The position numbers and the translations under genes were made by a program. This document shows positions 2,919 through 17,979 of a stretch of 44,370 nt of DNA, piece by piece. Position 1 is the first letter of the stretch. Each line of letters opens with the position of its first letter. Source of the DNA: a virus (lineage: Duplodnaviria > Heunggongvirae > Uroviricota > Caudoviricetes); IMG/VR virus record IMGVR_UViG_3300045988_005581; one strand, 5' to 3'. The notes beneath the pieces are model-generated. The model saw nothing but the letters and a program-made list of their open reading frames with translations. It was not told the DNA's origin and did not search any database.

Positions 2919-4179
2919 TATCACGGCAACGGAGCCGCAAGGCGCGTTTCTCGGTATGCATTGCAAGTTTCCGGCATTCGTAGCTGGCTTCGGTACGGGT
3001 AAATCCGAAGTTATGTGCAACTCTGCACTACTCGACAGCATGGAAGGTGGTAGCGATTCTATCATCGCCATGTATGAGCCGACTTATGACCTGGTGCGCC
3101 TCATCCTTGCACCGCGTATGGAAGAAAAGCTCACCGACTGGGGTATCCGGTACAAATACAACAAGTCTGACAACATAATCTATACGTCTTCCGGACAATT
3201 TGGGGATTTTGTTCTGCGTACACTTGATAATCCAGCACGAATCGTTGGCTACGAATCGTTTCGTGCGAAAATCGACGAGTTGGACACCCTTAACATGGAG
3301 CACGCCGAGCACGCGTGGAACAAAGTCATCGCCCGTAACCGCCAGTTGCCGCGGACATATAAACCTATTACACCGAAACCTGCTAATACCGTTTCCGTGT
3401 TCACTACCCCGGAAGGATTCCGTTTCGTACATGACCGCTGGGTAGTCAAAAAGAATCCAGGCTACGAGATGATTCAGGCGTCCACCCTGTCTAACCCGTT
3501 CCTGCCAGAAGATTATGTGCAGTCGTTACGCGACACATACCCAGGTCAGTTGATTGACGCCTACATCAACGGCGAGTTCGTCAACCTGACGGCGGGGACT
3601 GTCTATTACGCCTATGACCGCAGGAAAAACAGCAGCCGCGAAACAATAAAACCAGGCGAGACTCTGTATATCGGGCAGGACTTTAACGTAGGCCACATGG
3701 CTAGTACAGTTTACGTGCAACGTGGCAAAGTCTGGCATGCAGTCGCCGAGTTGGTGGATATGTTCGATACGCCCGATGTGGTGAGAGCCGTAACAGAGCG
3801 CTGGAAAAGTAAGGGCCACTATATCGTTATGTACCCCGACGCAAGCGGTAAAAACCGTAAAAGTAACAACGCCAGCACATCTGATATCGCCCAGTTACAG
3901 CAGGCCGGCTTCGAAGTGCGCGCTAAATCGACAAACCCACCGGTTAAAGACCGCGTAGCGGCGATGAATAAGGCGCTTGAATCTGGTATGGTCATGATTA
4001 ATGAACAGGCTTGCCCTGTTACCGCACGATGCCTGGAGCAACAGGCTTACGACAAGAACGGCGAACCGGATAAATCAGGCGGTGTGGACCACCAGAATGA
4101 TGGAACCACATACCCTATCGCGTATGAAATGCCGATTCGCAAACCAGTTATTAACGTCCCGGTGACTTTCGCACTTTAA
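2908..4179 (+). CDS. terminase large subunit
   Basis: Walker A-like GFGTGKS near the N-terminus, 423 aa, followed by portal gene. Tool start is GTG 2908; alternative ATG at 2956. Confidence 0.85.
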   Translation: MNVNITATEPQGAFLGMHCKFPAFVAGFGTGKSEVMCNSALLDSMEGGSDSIIAMYEPTYDLVRLILAPRMEEKLTDWGIRYKYNKSDNIIYTSSGQFGDFVLRTLDNPARIVGYESFRAKIDELDTLNMEHAEHAWNKVIARNRQLPRTYKPITPKPANTVSVFTTPEGFRFVHDRWVVKKNPGYEMIQASTLSNPFLPEDYVQSLRDTYPGQLIDAYINGEFVNLTAGTVYYAYDRRKNSSRETIKPGETLYIGQDFNVGHMASTVYVQRGKVWHAVAELVDMFDTPDVVRAVTERWKSKGHYIVMYPDASGKNRKSNNASTSDIAQLQQAGFEVRAKSTNPPVKDRVAAMNKALESGMVMINEQACPVTARCLEQQAYDKNGEPDKSGGVDHQNDGTTYPIAYEMPIRKPVINVPVTFAL

Positions 4180-4191
4180 GAGGATTATTCA

Positions 4192-5673
4192 ATGTTAACT
4201 ATGAACGGTCAGAATCAGGGTGTTAAGACAAAACACCGGGAATGGCTGCATCACTTCGATAAATGGCAGAAGGTACGCCACGCTCTTGAAGGCGACCTTA
4301 TCCGCTATCTGCGCAACGTCGGGAAGAACGAGCCTGACCAGACCTACGCAGCACAGCGACAGGAAGAATACGAGAACGGCGCTATCTGCTACAATTTCAC
4401 CAAACGCACGCTGGCGGGGATGACGGGGTCAGTGATGCGCAAAGACCCTGAGCAGATTATCCCGCCTGAACTTGAGTACCTGTTGCACAACGCTGACGGT
4501 TCAGGTGTCGGGCTGTGGCAGCACGCGCAGGATACGCTGATGGAGATTAACTCGATAGGCCGTGGCGGGTTGCTGGTGGACGCCCCGGAAACAGCCGCAG
4601 CAACGGCGGCAGAGCAGAACGCGGGATTATTAAACCCGGTAATCGCATTCTATACCGCGGAGAACATTATCAACTGGAGACTCACCCGCATCGGTTCAGT
4701 GAACCGCGTGACGATGGTTGTATTGCGTGAGGCATGGGAATACTCGGAACCAGGCGCTGAGTTTGAAACAAAATTCGGCGAGCAATACCGCGTCCTTGAC
4801 CTGATTGACGGTCGCTACCGCCAGCGCATCTACCGCTTCGATGCCGAAGGTGGCGCACAGGATGAAGTAATCGAAATCTTCCCGGAACTCGGCGAACAGT
4901 TGCGCGGTAAAATCCCGTTCACGTTCATTGGCGCAAGCAACAACGACGCCACTATAGACGATGCGCCTTTACTGCCGTTAGCTGAGCTAAATATAGGACA
5001 CTTCAGAAATTCGGCCGATGTGGAAGAGGCCAGCTTTATAGTAGGTCAACCGACACTGTTCATTGCCCCCGGCGAGAACATGAGCATGGAGCAGTGGAAA
5101 GAAGCCAACCCACACGGCATACGCATGGGGTCGCGTTCAGGCCACAACATCGGCTCCGGCGGAAATGCGTTTCTGGTTCAGGCGGCGGAAACTAACCTCG
5201 CCAAACAGAACATGCTGGATAAAGAGAATCAGGCCATCCAGATTGGCGCGCAGCTTATCACCCCGACGCAGCAAATCACCGCGGAATCGGCCCGCCTGCA
5301 ACGCGGCGCCGACACGTCAGTCATGGCAACAATAGCACGTAATGTAAGCATGGCGTATACCGATGCGTTGCGCTGGGTTGCGGGTATGCTTGGGCTTAGT
5401 GAAGATACTGAGATTGAGTTCAAGCTGAATATGGAATTCTTCCTGCAACCGATGACCGCTCAGGACCGCGCTCAGTGGATGGCGGATATTAACGCTGGCC
5501 TGCTACCCGCCACCGCTTACTATGCTGCGTTGCGCAAGGCAGGTGTGACTGACTGGACAGATGAGGACATTCAGAACGCTATTGAAGACGCACCTCTGCC
5601 GTTGGGTTCTGTTGCTCAGGTAGCGGGAGAGATTCCGCAGTCGGCGCAGCAACAGGACACCACTCAGCAGTAA
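4192..5673 (+). CDS. portal protein
   Basis: 493 aa directly downstream of TerL, strong RBS AAGAGGA, acidic Gln-rich C-terminus; assignment by size and synteny. Confidence 0.8.
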   Translation: MLTMNGQNQGVKTKHREWLHHFDKWQKVRHALEGDLIRYLRNVGKNEPDQTYAAQRQEEYENGAICYNFTKRTLAGMTGSVMRKDPEQIIPPELEYLLHNADGSGVGLWQHAQDTLMEINSIGRGGLLVDAPETAAATAAEQNAGLLNPVIAFYTAENIINWRLTRIGSVNRVTMVVLREAWEYSEPGAEFETKFGEQYRVLDLIDGRYRQRIYRFDAEGGAQDEVIEIFPELGEQLRGKIPFTFIGASNNDATIDDAPLLPLAELNIGHFRNSADVEEASFIVGQPTLFIAPGENMSMEQWKEANPHGIRMGSRSGHNIGSGGNAFLVQAAETNLAKQNMLDKENQAIQIGAQLITPTQQITAESARLQRGADTSVMATIARNVSMAYTDALRWVAGMLGLSEDTEIEFKLNMEFFLQPMTAQDRAQWMADINAGLLPATAYYAALRKAGVTDWTDEDIQNAIEDAPLPLGSVAQVAGEIPQSAQQQDTTQQ

Positions 5674-13009: not shown

Positions 13010-13422
13010 TGGGCTACTTTGAGGACTTAACAAAAGCGTTTGATGTGCCGCTGGTAGCCTTCGGAACCACCAACGGAATCAAGGTAGCGCTTGAAAACAT
13101 CGACGCGCCGACGTCAACAGATACGCCGTATCTGGCAAGTTACATGTTGCTGGCGGATACCGAGCAGGCTGACTTATTCTTCACGGAACAACGCGCCGGT
13201 GTCTATCAGATAGACATTAACTACGCATCGGTGAAAGGTAGCGCGCCAATCAATAAAATGGCAGACTTACTTAACACGGCGTTTAAATCAGGTAAGGCAT
13301 TTTCGCGTAACGACATCTGCGCCGAGGTTCAATCGGTTAGCCTGGGGCCGCTGATTGTAGAAAACGGATGGGCCAAACGACCATTGTCAATTAACTTTAT
13401 TGCATTCACCAAGAGGCTGTGA
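13006..13422 (+). CDS. tail terminator protein (putative)
   Basis: 138 aa directly upstream of the major tail protein gene; assignment by synteny. Confidence 0.5.
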   Translation: MMGYFEDLTKAFDVPLVAFGTTNGIKVALENIDAPTSTDTPYLASYMLLADTEQADLFFTEQRAGVYQIDINYASVKGSAPINKMADLLNTAFKSGKAFSRNDICAEVQSVSLGPLIVENGWAKRPLSINFIAFTKRL

Positions 13423-13424
13423 AT

Positions 13425-14591
13425 ATGGCTACAACTCCTTTTAAGGGCGCGAATACCGCGCAATTCTATGTGGCGGAAACTACCCCTGGCGTAACACCGA
13501 CTAACCCGGTATGGTCGCCGTTGCGTAACACGGGCGGCGTTCCCGCTGTAACCCGCGATGCACTGACTTCCAACGAACTGGACGGCAGCCGTGAAACTAC
13601 ATCCATCCGAACCGGTAACAAGCAGGTTAGCGGGGAGTATGCCATCGAACTTAGCTCTCGTAGCCAGGATGATTTCCTTGCGGGAGCGATGACTTCTACG
13701 TGGCAAGCTGGGGTAGAGATTACTGGCGCCGAAATTACGGTCGCCCCAGCAGGTAAAACATTCACCCGCGCTGCTGGTAGCTTCATTACTGGCGGTGTAG
13801 AAGTTGGCGACCTTATTGCGTTCACCGACTTAACCGGCGACAACGCAAAACCGTTTATCGTGACCGCGGTTTCCGCTCTGGTAGTTACGGGCGCAGGTAT
13901 TCAGCACACGCTGACAGCAGAGACAGTAACCACTGACGCAAAAACTGGCGACAAGCTGGAAACCGGTAACGCGTGTAAGACGTTCTCCATCCTGACGTGG
14001 TTCAAGGGCCAGTGTGGTAACCCGGACGCGTACATGCTGACCAAAGGTGTGGAAATCTCTGGCTTTACCGTAGAGCAGGCGGTTAACGCCATGGTCACCG
14101 GCAGCTTCCCGTTCATCGGCCTTAGTCAGGAGATTCTTACCGCGCCGCCGTCTGGCTCTGATTTCTCTCAGGTTACGTTCACCGATGAGCCGTTCTCGTC
14201 GGTAGATGTGTCGGTGTTCGATGGCTCCACGCCGTTGCGTTGCGATACTCTCACCATCACCAACGACAACGGAGCTTCCGCGCAGTTCGAACTCGGTAAC
14301 AGTAGCGTGGCGTTCGTCGAACGTGGACGCGCAGCTAACACATTCTCTATCTCTGGCAAGCTGTACGACATGGCGATGATTCAGAAGTTTATCAACGAGC
14401 AGCAGGTAGAGATTAACTCTATTCTGGCAGGGGTAAACGGGGCTATGTCTTTCAGTTTGAAACGTGCAGAGCTTACGGCGGTTACACCTGAGATTGGTGG
14501 GCCTGAGTCAATCACTCAGTCCATTGAAGGCCAGGCTACCGGCAATCGGTACCAGTCGTCTATCGTAATTCAACGTATCACCTACGCATAA
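13425..14591 (+). CDS. major tail (tube) protein
   Basis: ATG 13425 with AAGAGG RBS (tool start 13419 is GTG); about 388 aa, Thr/Gly/Ser-rich; followed by a strong terminator and precedes the chaperone/tape-measure genes. Confidence 0.7.
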   Translation: MATTPFKGANTAQFYVAETTPGVTPTNPVWSPLRNTGGVPAVTRDALTSNELDGSRETTSIRTGNKQVSGEYAIELSSRSQDDFLAGAMTSTWQAGVEITGAEITVAPAGKTFTRAAGSFITGGVEVGDLIAFTDLTGDNAKPFIVTAVSALVVTGAGIQHTLTAETVTTDAKTGDKLETGNACKTFSILTWFKGQCGNPDAYMLTKGVEISGFTVEQAVNAMVTGSFPFIGLSQEILTAPPSGSDFSQVTFTDEPFSSVDVSVFDGSTPLRCDTLTITNDNGASAQFELGNSSVAFVERGRAANTFSISGKLYDMAMIQKFINEQQVEINSILAGVNGAMSFSLKRAELTAVTPEIGGPESITQSIEGQATGNRYQSSIVIQRITYA

Positions 14592-14596
14592 AACTA

Positions 14597-14620
14597 AGGC
14601 CCCTTTCGGGGCCTTTTTCT
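14597..14620. terminator. bidirectional intrinsic terminator
   Basis: AGGCCCC (14597-14603) / GGGGCCT (14608-14614), loop TTTC, T-runs on both strands; separates the tail-shaft operon from the convergent minus-strand cassette. Confidence 0.7.
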
Positions 14621-15174
14621 TACAAACCTAATTTTAAAGCAATGTCTATAACGTTCGATTTAACGTCACCCGGTATGATGTAGGTGTCGTAATCTTTTAC
14701 ACCACTAACATCGTACAGATAGCCACGGCTATCGCAGATGAACGTATAGCCGTCACGATGGAGGCGGACGATTCGCACGTCATGCCCCGCGGCGACGATA
14801 GGGGCAACTTCACTGGCGAATCCACCATCGGACACTACAAAAACTTCGTCGCCGTCAGGCAAGTTTTCAGCAAGATACTTACCGAAATAATCATCGCCGA
14901 ATACCGGTTTAATGAATTGCTCAGAAATGGCAATCATTAACCGGCGGCGGGACAACCCATTAAGAAAACCCTCGGGTTTTTCTTTCCGCGCCCGGTCGTC
15001 GTAGCCGTCGAGAAATTCGTGGTAAGCATCCTGGCCTAACGCTGCCAAAGCAATATTGAACATTGGATTCTTGAAACTGGTAGTTCCTTTCGCAAAGCCC
15101 ATTTCTACCAGCGCCATAGCAAGCGTGTCTTTCCCGCAACCCGCAGGGCCATTAAGAATAATTACCTTAGCCAT
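14620..15174 (-). CDS. deoxynucleoside monophosphate kinase-like P-loop kinase
   Basis: P-loop GPAGCGKDT near the N-terminus; the GKDT variant and overall spacing resemble T4 gp1-type dNMP kinases (recalled, not aligned). 184 aa. Confidence 0.65.
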   Translation of the reverse strand: MAKVIILNGPAGCGKDTLAMALVEMGFAKGTTSFKNPMFNIALAALGQDAYHEFLDGYDDRARKEKPEGFLNGLSRRRLMIAISEQFIKPVFGDDYFGKYLAENLPDGDEVFVVSDGGFASEVAPIVAAGHDVRIVRLHRDGYTFICDSRGYLYDVSGVKDYDTYIIPGDVKSNVIDIALKLGL

Positions 15175-15662
15175 TATTTATCGCTCCCGTGTGGTTTTAA
15201 GTGTGTAGAGTTCCCGTTACAGTCGTATTCGGTAACTGCGTGTGCGGTTATGCCGAGGTCACGGAAATGCTTTATTACCGCTGGAGAGTCGTCGAACGCA
15301 CACAAGATTCTTTCCAGTCCGAAAGCACGCAACACCTCTTCTTTAATTACGATGTCTTTTCTGTTGTCGTGTTTGCTGCGCATGATTAGCGTGTCAAACC
15401 TAACGTTATTCTCTCGTAACCATTCGCGAGTCTCCTCCTCAGCGTCATCACTTCGCCCGGTAAGGATAATTATAGTAAGTCCGGAATGCCACAGTACGCT
15501 ACACAAATGGATATTGTCGTATATCGGAGCGTCATCTTTGCAGGCCATGTTAAATGGCTTCCACGCCCACGTTTCTCCGTAGTTATCTTTTGGTAACAGG
15601 TGTAAGCGATGGGTACCGTCAGCCAATGTCCCGTCTAAATCGAAAATTACAATATCTTTCAT
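15174..15662 (-). CDS. HAD-superfamily phosphatase
   Basis: N-terminal DLDGTL (HAD motif I, DxDxT); 162 aa; TAATG-coupled to the kinase gene. Confidence 0.7.
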   Translation of the reverse strand: MKDIVIFDLDGTLADGTHRLHLLPKDNYGETWAWKPFNMACKDDAPIYDNIHLCSVLWHSGLTIIILTGRSDDAEEETREWLRENNVRFDTLIMRSKHDNRKDIVIKEEVLRAFGLERILCAFDDSPAVIKHFRDLGITAHAVTEYDCNGNSTHLKPHGSDK

Positions 15663-16789
15663 CCCAGCATCTCCGGTGAAATAGTTAAACGTGCGACCTC
15701 GCCATATTCGGCGCTATAAGTAATTACATTTGCACTGCGGCCCGACATCCATCCGCCGCGAGAGGCGTAGGCGTCTTTAGCCGCTAAGGTGCGGTGTTGC
15801 TCAACAATCATGTTACGGCTTTCTACAATCTTCTGGTGGTGCAGATGGCCTACGTGGGCGTAGCTGTAAACACTCTCGCCGAACGCTTTACGGAACTTGG
15901 CAATCATAACCGGTTCGATAGCGTCGAATCGTGCTTTATGCCCGTGATGGAAGAACAGCGTCGTTTTGCCGTGTTGCACCATCTTGTAAACATCCGGCGA
16001 CGTATCGACGAACACGCGCGGCTCATTGTCGTACAGCGTACTGAACATCTCAGCCAACCAAATCATACCCGATTCGTCGTGATTCCCTTGCACGATAAGC
16101 AAGCGAACATTTTTATGCTTAACCAACGCCATATCAACGACACGGCGGACCATACGAATCATGTAACGGACCAGTTTCTGATAGCGCGTGTCAGCGTCAA
16201 GGACATGACCGCTTGCGGGCGTAACGGCATCAAGACTATCGAAGTGCGCTAAGTCGCCAAGAAGATTGATAACCCCAGTACCGGCATCCGGTGCTTTCTG
16301 GAATGCTGCATCGAACCAACGAGAGAACAGGTCTTCCGCAATCTTCATGTCCCAGTCGTCGCCGCTCTCGTCGGCCCAGGCCAGCATACCGAGATGGAAA
16401 TCGGATACAGTGTAAAGATTGAGCAGCTTATCGTCCCGTTTGGCACGAACGGCTTTAACAGGTGCAACGGGCGTAATCTCCGATTTCATGCCTTCGATCA
16501 CGGCTTTCATCAATTCAACCTGACGTTCGGCGTCAGTGTCGGTCTTAACCCATTGCAACTTAGTGTTGCCGAACTCATCCACCAGTGACGACGTTCCTTT
16601 AATCTTATAGCCGTCCGGGACAAGGTGGCTAACATCACGTCCGTGACCTACACCTTTCTTAGCCAGCTTCGCTTTACGGATACGAATTACGCGGTCTGAG
16701 ATGCCGTATTTACGGGCGATGTCTACATTCTTCATTCCGGCGTTCAATTCTTCCTGTAACTGTTCGTCGGTTATTTTCTTCCGGGCCAT
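15659..16789 (-). CDS. calcineurin-like metallophosphoesterase with N-terminal HTH-like domain
   Basis: Motifs SDFH, GDLAHFD, GNHDE, HHGH and GHLHH match metallophosphoesterase signatures; N-terminal NVDIARKYGISDRVIR is HTH-like. RBS GAGGAAG. Confidence 0.75.
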   Translation of the reverse strand: MARKKITDEQLQEELNAGMKNVDIARKYGISDRVIRIRKAKLAKKGVGHGRDVSHLVPDGYKIKGTSSLVDEFGNTKLQWVKTDTDAERQVELMKAVIEGMKSEITPVAPVKAVRAKRDDKLLNLYTVSDFHLGMLAWADESGDDWDMKIAEDLFSRWFDAAFQKAPDAGTGVINLLGDLAHFDSLDAVTPASGHVLDADTRYQKLVRYMIRMVRRVVDMALVKHKNVRLLIVQGNHDESGMIWLAEMFSTLYDNEPRVFVDTSPDVYKMVQHGKTTLFFHHGHKARFDAIEPVMIAKFRKAFGESVYSYAHVGHLHHQKIVESRNMIVEQHRTLAAKDAYASRGGWMSGRSANVITYSAEYGEVARLTISPEMLG

Positions 16790-16827
16790 GCTTACTTCCT
16801 CGTGTTTAGGATTTGTCTTATAGTAGC

Positions 16828-17019
16828 CTACTTCTCTTTCACGTTCGAGTTACAAGCCCAGATTAAAATGAATACCCACGGCAACAGAACCCACCCGAGA
16901 AATAAGTTAGCCATGAATATCGCTAGCTTTGCTTTATGGTTTCGCATATGGGCCACAAAAAACGGGATAAAATAAACGCCTACAACAATAATTAAAAAGA
17001 ACATAGCGATACCGGTCAT
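16828..17019 (-). CDS. superinfection-immunity-like small membrane protein
   Basis: Two TM segments with YFIPFFVAHMRNH...LFLGWVLLPWVFILIWA, resembling the Imm_superinfect family signature from memory. ATG 17019 with AGGAG RBS (tool start 17046 upstream). Confidence 0.6.
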   Translation of the reverse strand: MTGIAMFFLIIVVGVYFIPFFVAHMRNHKAKLAIFMANLFLGWVLLPWVFILIWACNSNVKEK

Positions 17020-17061
17020 AACATAACTCCTGATTTGAGATAACATCGTTGGTGTAAGTGA

Positions 17062-17090
17062 ATAGTACGCTATTATATCAGGGTGTGCAA
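17062..17090 (-). promoter_or_regulatory. sigma70-like promoter TTGCAC-N17-TACTAT (minus strand) with embedded dyad
   Basis: TTGCAC = 17085-17090, TACTAT = 17062-17067 on the minus strand; dyad AATAG-N4-CTATT 17061-17074; near-identical to the element at 7505-7540. Confidence 0.5.
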
Positions 17091-17197
17091 GTAGTATGTT
17101 AGAATAATTTTGCGCCTAGTGTCGCACACGAAAAGCGGGTGGTTCCCGTCTGGCGCATTTCCTTTAACCAGTAACCTCTTAACCAAAGGATTAAAGA

Positions 17198-17614
17198 ATG
17201 AAACTTTCTGATTTTTATTACGAAGCTGAAGCTGAAAAGGGTGCACGTATGCCGATACCATTAAAAGACGGTACCGATTCCGGGGAATGGCTTAATGTTG
17301 TTTCTCCTGAGGCAGACGTTGCCGTTAAGGCTATGCGCGCGTTCACCCTTGCATACCGGGCAGTGTTAGGGAAATTAAAACCGCTTCGTGATAAGTGCGA
17401 AGAGATGAAAGATTTCTCTGAATACAACCTGAAGATGGAAGACGCGGCGACGGACCTTAACCGTCAGTTAGCGGTTGAATTGGTTAACGGGTGGAGCCTT
17501 GACGACGAATTCAATAAAGAGAATCTGAACACACTCCTGACGCAATATAAACGACTCGCGGAACTTGTTGTTGTGTTTCATAACGAACAACTGCACCAGC
17601 TACAGGAAAAGTAG
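17198..17614 (+). CDS. tail assembly chaperone (G-like)
   Basis: 138 aa immediately upstream of the tape-measure gene, RBS AAGGA; the -1 frame stays open through its 3' end. Confidence 0.6.
   Translation: MKLSDFYYEAEAEKGARMPIPLKDGTDSGEWLNVVSPEADVAVKAMRAFTLAYRAVLGKLKPLRDKCEEMKDFSEYNLKMEDAATDLNRQLAVELVNGWSLDDEFNKENLNTLLTQYKRLAELVVVFHNEQLHQLQEK
17605..17611 (+). promoter_or_regulatory. putative -1 programmed ribosomal frameshift site (G GAA AAG)
   Basis: Heptamer GGAAAAG ends one codon before the chaperone stop (TAG 17612-17614); the -1 frame is open from 17584 to 17979. Analogous to the lambda G/GT site GGGAAAG. Confidence 0.35.
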
Positions 17615-17619
17615 ACGCG

Positions 17620-17979
17620 TTGCTCCAGTTCGCCCGTTGGAACTTCATAACCCGCCACAAACGGCGGGAATTTGACAGTATCGCCGATGGGCATAAAGCC
17701 GCGCTAATTGCTATGGGGGTTATGCAAGACGCGCCGGACGCAACGCAGGCCACTGGGCCGGAATGCCCCCCTGAACTACTAACCACATTTGAGAAGTACA
17801 GGGAAATTAAATTCACCCGCCGAGTGGACGACGACGGCATCAAGATGTACCCGCGCGAGCAATTACGATGGTCAGATTTAGTGGCGTACAGCACCGTTTC
17901 AGGCCAGAATATAGGGATGTTCGAATCTGACATCATCATGAGCTTAGACGCTATTTTCGAGGGTAGAAACGATGGCTGA
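17620..17979 (+). CDS. tail assembly chaperone frameshift extension (T-like)
   Basis: ORF in the -1 frame relative to 17198..17614, no convincing independent start (tool start is TTG); ends overlapping the tape-measure start. Confidence 0.45.
   Translation: MLQFARWNFITRHKRREFDSIADGHKAALIAMGVMQDAPDATQATGPECPPELLTTFEKYREIKFTRRVDDDGIKMYPREQLRWSDLVAYSTVSGQNIGMFESDIIMSLDAIFEGRNDG

Follow-up and report, generated by a model that had tools for sequence, protein, structure and literature searches.

The 44,370-nt stretch of viral DNA analysed here, IMG/VR virus record IMGVR_UViG_3300045988_005581 (Caudoviricetes; hereafter the window), carries a minus-strand block of three overlapping genes within its rightward structural genes. 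These encode a metallophosphoesterase (MPE), a stand-alone phosphatase of the HAD type (HAD) and a P-loop kinase (KIN). We propose, with a probability of roughly one half, that the three enzymes make up a deoxynucleotide-supply (scavenging) module, parallel to A1, Dmp and Dnk of phage T5. The block itself is already known as a conserved feature of a well-sampled phage group and has been annotated by pipelines. What is added here is the gp1-type fold of KIN, the finding that the gene commonly called 'polynucleotide kinase' encodes a phosphatase that stands alone and has neighbours in nucleotide metabolism, the A1-like architecture of MPE, and the recurrence of the trio across phage families, including one case of non-orthologous displacement. 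The three genes are as follows.

14620-15174, minus strand: KIN, P-loop kinase of the T4 gp1 deoxynucleoside monophosphate (dNMP) kinase family; 184 amino acids (aa), P-loop GPAGCGKDT
15174-15662, minus strand: HAD, stand-alone Pnkp-type phosphatase; 162 aa, motifs DLDGT, LTGR, RKD and DD
15659-16789, minus strand: MPE, helix-turn-helix (HTH) plus metallophosphoesterase; 376 aa

A coupled block of three enzyme genes

All three open reading frames (ORFs) have strong family matches and are therefore real genes, and they occupy 14620-16789, exactly where the initial annotation had drawn three minus-strand ORFs. Stop and start codons overlap at both junctions (ATGA at MPE/HAD and TAATG at HAD/KIN), so the description of the genes as tightly coupled was correct. 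The initial annotation had also treated them as a three-gene cassette. The three genes stand, but a fourth gene of the same operon, encoding a superinfection-immunity protein (SIE, ORF 16828-17046), had been missed. The leftward operon has the order SIE, MPE, HAD, KIN, with SIE as its first gene.

The 2.9-kb region from 14400 to 17300 shares 99.4% identity with the Escherichia phages BEU33 and BEU35 and 88-96% with many genomes of Kagunavirus, among them K1G, Golestan and SHAK7858; at least some part of it is matched by 340 phage records. On the strength of these identities, we assign the window to Kagunavirus (Guernseyvirinae), as a coliphage genome of ~44 kb.

Family and fold of the three proteins

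MPE matches the profile phrog_704 ('DNA repair exonuclease') at 3.5e-167 and belongs to a family of 4,624 clusters at 50% identity (E ≤ 0.001). A first homolog search gave only sequences of at least 97% identity, and a representative library supplied the diverse set used here. Across 40 homologs of 30-50% identity, D130, H132, G178, D179, N236, H237, H282, G314 and H317 are invariant and H315 is nearly so, and all five metallophosphoesterase motifs (DxH, GD, GNH[D/E], H and GHxH) are intact in MPE. The structural model (pLDDT 90.3) begins with a three-helix HTH (about residues 1-45), continues through a linker that contains a beta-hairpin and ends in the binuclear catalytic domain. Weak matches to the HTH domains of GerE, FixJ and sigma region 4 were obtained for the N-terminus, and the fold is nearest to those of the nucleases PolD-DP1, Mre11 and SbcD. 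No Rad50/SbcC ATPase or polymerase partner for MPE is annotated in a closely related genome; in place of such a partner, MPE has an HTH domain of its own.

Pfam recognised only the P-loop of KIN. The protein matches phrog_139 ('deoxynucleoside monophosphate kinase') at 3e-44, and T4 gp1 matches the same region of this profile (1.8e-65). In 40 homologs, G14, K15 and D16 of the P-loop GPAGCGKDT are invariant and T17 is nearly so; the corresponding motif of T4 gp1 is GVKRSGKDT. The overall fold is nearest to T4 Dnk (PDB 1DEK), not to other P-loop kinases. Identity with T4 gp1 is 21-24%, the two proteins differ in length (184 versus 241 aa), and neither single-sequence hhalign (39 residues against T4 gp1) nor PDB profile searches extend beyond the N-terminal P-loop region of KIN. 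By fold and profile, KIN is thus assigned to the T4 gp1-type dNMP kinase family, its substrate range being a prediction.

HAD matches PF25109 (HAD_PNKP) at 3.3e-20, with 73 bits against a cut-off of 27.6. Its best sequence matches in the PDB are Pnkp1 (4xrp) and T4 Pnkp (1ltq/5uj0), and the DxDGT, RKD and DD motifs are kept. HAD also matches phrog_415 (3e-64), as does T5 Dmp (3.6e-57), a protein for which no Pfam model matched. Every one of the 120 closest HAD homologs listed stands alone, on a phage-sized contig. Because HAD lacks a kinase domain and these homologs stand alone, the common label 'polynucleotide kinase' is wrong for this protein and misleading. Krischvirus genomes have a stand-alone HAD gene coupled to nrdB and, separately, PseT; since both types are carried together, they are not redundant. 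In Drulisvirus, HAD is followed by a MazG-like dATP/dGTP pyrophosphohydrolase gene. The gene neighbours of stand-alone HADs thus point to nucleotide metabolism, not RNA repair.

The family calls of the initial annotation survive this scrutiny. It had named a metallophosphoesterase, which agrees with the phrog_704 match, the intact motifs and the fold of MPE; a HAD phosphatase, for which the PF25109 and Pnkp/PseT matches indicate the Pnkp type; and a T4 gp1-like dNMP kinase, as seen in the profile shared with T4 gp1 and the fold nearest 1DEK. The profile search that it had proposed for the kinase led to the T4 gp1 family and not to an unrelated kinase family. NCBIfam gave nothing specific.

Recurrence of the trio across phage families

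To compare gene order, we anchored loci on KIN (n = 81); the MPE alignment had no stretch conserved enough for anchoring. In 56 of the 81 loci HAD is no more than 6 kb away from KIN, and the full trio, in the order MPE-HAD-KIN, was found in 26. These 26 comprise all 17 Kagunavirus loci and nine others on 45-53 kb contigs; the one examined among the nine is the Drexlerviridae phage Ec_L1. HAD and KIN are 1-2 kb apart in Rtp/T1-like loci, and T1 has an HNH endonuclease gene between them. Within a collection of 50,697 phage records, MPE is present in 2,051, HAD in 2,371 and KIN in 1,536.

An Aeromonas podophage of the Autographiviridae encodes a phrog_221 phosphoesterase, then HAD (46% identity), then KIN (43%), and this trio adjoins genes annotated as exonuclease and endonuclease VII. 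The phrog_221 phosphoesterase is non-orthologous to MPE and is not detected by the MPE family profile. Since the order persists despite this non-orthologous first enzyme, the arrangement argues that the three enzymes act together. Direct observations here are the structure and coupling of the genes, the assignment of their products to families and folds, the integrity of the catalytic motifs and the recurring synteny.

A proposed route of deoxynucleotide supply

In the scheme that we favour, the operon would be transcribed by host RNA polymerase. A host-type promoter and an immunity gene would fit an early role. The HTH-MPE protein would bind DNA and act as a nuclease of the Mre11/SbcD/DP1 type, with host DNA as its likeliest substrate and dNMPs and oligonucleotides as products. 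KIN would convert the dNMPs to deoxynucleoside diphosphates (dNDPs), from which host nucleoside diphosphate kinase would make triphosphates (dNTPs) for the family-A DNA polymerase of the phage. HAD would trim blocking phosphates (3'-phosphate ends or 3'-dNMPs) or remove unwanted dNMPs. The substrates, the timing of expression and the union of the three enzymes in a single pathway are what we infer. As an analogy, this logic parallels that of T5 A1/Dmp/Dnk and of T4 DenA/DenB plus gp1.

The gene content of the phage counts in favour of supply. A fully annotated relative (~95% identity over the block), with a standard siphovirus gene layout, encodes a family-A DNA polymerase, helicases, a primase-type protein, a single-strand-binding protein and a PD-(D/E)XK exonuclease, and its annotation contains no ligase, ribonucleotide reductase, thymidylate synthase or base-modifying enzyme. 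Pfam scans of the replication genes of the window agree, although small hypothetical ORFs were not all scanned. We take the presence of replication genes alongside the lack of a de novo dNTP enzyme in the annotation and scans as support for the supply function. The same data match the earlier remark that no ligase or base-modifying enzyme could be recognised. The phage has no tRNA genes.

The closest functional parallel is T5. Host DNA degradation by T5 requires A1, and A1 alone suffices for it; the protein is predicted to be a metallophosphatase, with structural features in common with nucleases of double-strand-break repair and with proofreading subunits of polymerases (2026 preprint). Another paper divides A1 into a DNA-binding part at the N-terminus and an endonuclease part at the C-terminus. 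Dmp is a characterised 5'-dNMP phosphatase. A1, Dmp and Dnk are the same three enzyme types as MPE, HAD and KIN; the MPE model likewise joins an N-terminal DNA-binding part to a phosphoesterase part with Mre11/SbcD relatives; and in the Demerecviridae A1 is directly followed by dmp, as MPE is by HAD. The differences are also clear. A1 falls in phrog_1745 only, MPE in phrog_704, and a test of MPE as an A1 homolog with hhalign returned 34% probability over 29 columns at the NHD motif (motif III; 40 versus 9 sequences), so sequence homology found no support. Given the separate PHROGs and this low probability, T5 is kept as a functional parallel and not as the same family. In T5 the products of breakdown are excreted instead of being reused. 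Finally, all three genes are coupled in one operon here, whereas Dnk of T5 is an early gene that lies outside the pre-early first-step-transfer region, where A1 and Dmp are encoded.

T4 and the T1-like phages offer further comparisons. T4 gp1 shares with KIN its profile (phrog_139) and the P-loop pattern GxxxxGKDT, and is its best structural match. T4 gene 1 (4650-5375 of our locus L093) sits amid the morphogenesis genes 57A, 1, 3, 2 and 4, and is therefore a classical precedent for a gp1-type kinase in a structural cluster. T1-like phages (Drexlerviridae) have orthologs of all three families, 41-59% identical, in the same order. The KanT1 paper (2026), on T1-like phages, gives the order exonuclease, polynucleotide kinase, dNMP kinase and offers the guess 'enhancing nucleotide supply'; this one sentence was the sole published comment in the literature searched. 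In the Drexlerviridae, however, the block lies near lysis or early genes and is often split, unlike the Kagunavirus block, which is inverted between tail tube and chaperones and headed by SIE.

Several observations weigh against a supply module. The sequence of HAD is nearer to the 3'-phosphatase domains of T4 PseT and Pnkp1 than to T5 Dmp: T4-like PseT genes match HAD by tblastn (26-32% identity over ~140 aa, E down to 3e-11), and direct BLASTP of HAD against T5 Dmp gives a marginal E of 5e-4 over 48 aa. Moreover, a 5'-dNMP phosphatase and a dNMP kinase that are coupled would compete for the same substrate. For these two reasons the phosphatase step is the least certain, and HAD may act on 3'-phosphates or on particular nucleotides. 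The KIN family has an invariant D-G-G-F where T4 gp1 has D-T-R-Q, after the fourth strand (a correspondence set by eye, as MAFFT misaligned the C-terminal half), so substrate binding by KIN may differ. The link between MPE and A1 is by analogy of architecture and structure only. Jerseyvirus AG11 has MPE alone of the trio, at the same position between tube and chaperone genes, and Dhillonvirus has MPE (76% identity) between lysis genes and terminase, without HAD and KIN. These cases imply a role for MPE that is independent of HAD and KIN, and because of them we regard MPE as the core gene and HAD plus KIN as an add-on. Lastly, host DNA degradation by Guernseyvirinae is not reported in the literature searched, which, for these genes in Kagunavirus, Jerseyvirus and Drexlerviridae, gave annotation-level mentions only.

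Alternative explanations

The same distribution could mean that the operon merely houses independent functions, with MPE an SbcD-like recombination or replication nuclease acting on phage DNA and HAD and KIN unlinked add-ons. MPE is the conserved core (2051 versus 1536 records for KIN), it stands alone in Jerseyvirus and Dhillonvirus, and it is separated from HAD and KIN in T1 and in many loci of Drexlerviridae. We nevertheless hold this to be unlikely, as the overlapping MPE-HAD-KIN order recurs in separate families, once with a non-orthologous first enzyme, and the annotation of the closely related genome includes no Rad50/SbcC partner. A split end-healing system is a further rival. HAD would remove 3'-phosphates, KIN would phosphorylate 5'-OH ends and MPE would trim damaged ends, the targets being either nicks in phage DNA, which host LigA would then seal, or tRNAs that defence nucleases of the host had cleaved. 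HAD fits the HAD_PNKP model, the phosphatase domains of Pnkp1 and T4 Pnkp are its closest relatives of known structure, tblastn with HAD picks up T4-like PseT genes directly, and coupled kinase and phosphatase genes recall the two-domain Pnkp; DNA targets, we reason, would need no phage ligase. The 3'-phosphatase domains of PseT and Pnkp1 are indeed homologous to HAD, with catalytic motifs kept, but HAD stands alone, without a fused Pnk-type kinase (such a fusion is seen in none of the 120 closest homologs listed), and the neighbouring KIN is of the gp1 family and not a Pnk-type 5'-kinase. Krischvirus has this HAD type in addition to PseT, and the other contexts of HAD are nucleotide enzymes. 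MPE lies in the nuclease branch, not in the protein-phosphatase-like branch, to which the C. thermocellum Pnkp phosphoesterase belongs. Neither a ligase (RNA ligase included) nor a Hen1 partner appears in the annotation of the ~95% relative or in the Pfam scans, and the phage has no tRNA gene. End-healing of either target is therefore doubtful, and the tRNA-repair version put forward in the initial annotation is weakened by the kinase type, the phosphoesterase branch, the lack of an RNA ligase or tRNA gene, and the finding of MPE without its partners.

A counter-defence function is improbable, though it has an analogue. The bacterial PUA-Calcineurin-CE-HAD system detects the m6-dAMP set free when phages break down host DNA, and it depletes the dNTP pool by conversion to dNMPs. 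Like the cassette, it pairs a calcineurin-like phosphoesterase with a HAD phosphatase that acts on deoxynucleotides, and it is tied to host DNA degradation products; it differs in being a host defence with a PUA sensor and no kinase, and the phage MPE is in the nuclease branch. KIN and HAD might drain or destroy dNMP alarm signals such as m6-dAMP, or KIN might re-phosphorylate dNMPs against dNTP depletion. The shared superfamilies, together with a kinase for the reverse reaction, would suit such a function, as would an operon headed by a gene of phage competition (SIE) and a block that moves between phage families. The case is one of analogy, however: PADLOC defence models gave no match for the phage proteins, the literature searched has no escape-mutant or anti-defence data for these genes, and members of the KIN family occur widely, as single genes, in many large phages, which is what plain metabolism predicts. 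Of the two readings offered in the initial annotation, nucleotide-pool remodelling is the better supported, but its link to a non-canonical virion base falls away. In its favour, T4 gp1 kinase is needed because of hydroxymethyl-dCMP, according to an annotation note. Yet the annotation of the ~95% relative and the Pfam scans show no gene of the hydroxymethylase, thymidylate-synthase-like, glycosyltransferase, DpdA/queuosine or methyltransferase kind, and six common restriction enzymes cut the DNA of Golestan, a close relative, which makes a modified base very hard to credit. T5 has the same kinds of enzymes and ordinary DNA.

The deoxynucleotide-supply module can also be given a bolder form, in which the trio would be a horizontally mobile 'host chromosome to dNDP' cassette, with MPE the functional equivalent of A1, and HAD and KIN would clear alarms of the m6-dAMP type sensed by PUA-Cal-HAD-like systems. 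We give this version little credence. If it were true, the T1-like and Jersey-like phages, which are very common, would have in MPE a single protein able to destroy the host chromosome. Both the Kagunaviruses, with K1G, K1H, Golestan and their relatives, and the T1-like phages occur in abundance, and several of them are candidates for therapy. Degradation of host DNA by MPE, as by T5 A1, would bear on the risk of generalized transduction, on nucleotide acquisition by phages without a reductase of their own, and on the host defences triggered (nuclease-sensing retrons and dNMP-sensing systems).

Operon layout and flanking elements

The genes and signals around the trio are listed below.

13419-14591, plus strand: tail tube gene (PF18906, 5.6e-38)
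14596-14615, both strands: bidirectional hairpin terminator, AAGGCCCC-TTTC-GGGGCCTT, with a T run on the plus strand
16828-17046, minus strand: ORF of SIE, superinfection-immunity membrane protein (PF14373 Imm_superinfect, 1.6e-13; phrog_1039, 1.3e-23)
17062-17090, minus strand: leftward promoter-like elements, TTGCAC-17 nt-TACTAT, overlapped by a perfect TATAAT (17077-17072)
17198-17614 and 17620-17979, plus strand: tail assembly chaperones (PF08748 and PF23812)

Pfam matches on both flanks place the block between the major tail protein and the tail assembly chaperones, as the initial annotation had it. The bidirectional terminator that it had marked at 14597-14620 was found as a hairpin at 14596-14615, with an 8-bp stem (6 G-C) and a 4-nt loop, in the 28-nt gap that separates the convergent stops of the tail tube gene and KIN. 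Its sequence is identical in the 17 Kagunavirus loci and Jerseyvirus AG11. A promoter of the operon's own, predicted at 17062-17090, fared less well: conserved elements are there, but a strict sigma-70 consensus scan did not call them. The elements are unchanged, or vary in a single locus (L013), among seven aligned Kagunavirus loci, and the intergenic region that holds them is near-invariant in these loci, whereas the flanking genes differ by up to 45%. On this conservation, a leftward promoter at 17062-17090 is plausible. The TG extension of the leftward TATAAT occurs in this window only, and the extended -10 form TGnTATAAT was dropped as promoter evidence, its exact form not being conserved outside the closest relatives.

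SIE probably starts at the ATG at 17019, which is preceded by AGGAG; the annotation of phage SHAK7858 has a 63-aa gene at this position. Across Kagunavirus loci, the protein in the SIE slot is 91-100% identical, ~60% identical or undetectable, and Jerseyvirus AG11 has an unrelated 109-aa ORF (phrog_14165) in its place. The arrangement had been called moron-like. It does have its own terminator and a probable promoter, but the three enzyme genes are present in every one of the 17 Kagunavirus loci, and variation is confined to the SIE slot. The block is no sporadic insertion, being fixed in Kagunavirus, with MPE at the same place in Jerseyvirus. Its G+C content is slightly lowered (0.48 versus ~0.51).

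In AG11, a 76-aa ORF (4128-4358 of our locus L091) follows MPE, in the position of HAD and KIN. It matches only the C-terminal third of the longer phrog_2452 and phrog_17613, one of which is annotated as an ATPase. We considered it as a remnant of HAD or KIN and rejected this, as it has no similarity to either.

Record OR594183.1 (vB_EcoM_SHAK7858) carries the taxonomy line Autographiviridae; Studiervirinae; Kayfunavirus and has 'EcoM' in its name, yet it is 95.5% identical to this Kagunavirus over the 2.9-kb block, with the same siphovirus layout. Its taxonomy looks like that of a mislabelled record.

The two chaperone frames (17198-17614 and 17620-17979) differ in reading frame, and both match phrog_15027 (259 positions), the first over positions 1-138 and the second over 143-259. 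Such a pair has the usual pattern of a programmed frameshift product, which we predict here. Upstream, an extended -10 element, TGnTAGAAT, lies at 17097-17105 on the plus strand and diverges from the leftward promoter. Its TG and TAGAAT are present in 7/7 aligned Kagunavirus loci, and the middle base varies. It is likely to be a promoter for the chaperone, tape-measure and tail genes, restarting transcription past the terminator at 14596-14615. The Rfam model int-alpA RNA (RF02996) matches at full length at 17109-17173 on the plus strand (36.6 bits against a gathering cut-off of 35.8; E 4.7e-4), in the near-invariant intergenic stretch that precedes the tail assembly chaperone gene. It is predicted to fold into two small hairpins closed by a GCGCC/GGCGC stem, with an unremarkable energy (z -1.06). 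The int-alpA-like element would be the 5' leader of the rightward tail operon.

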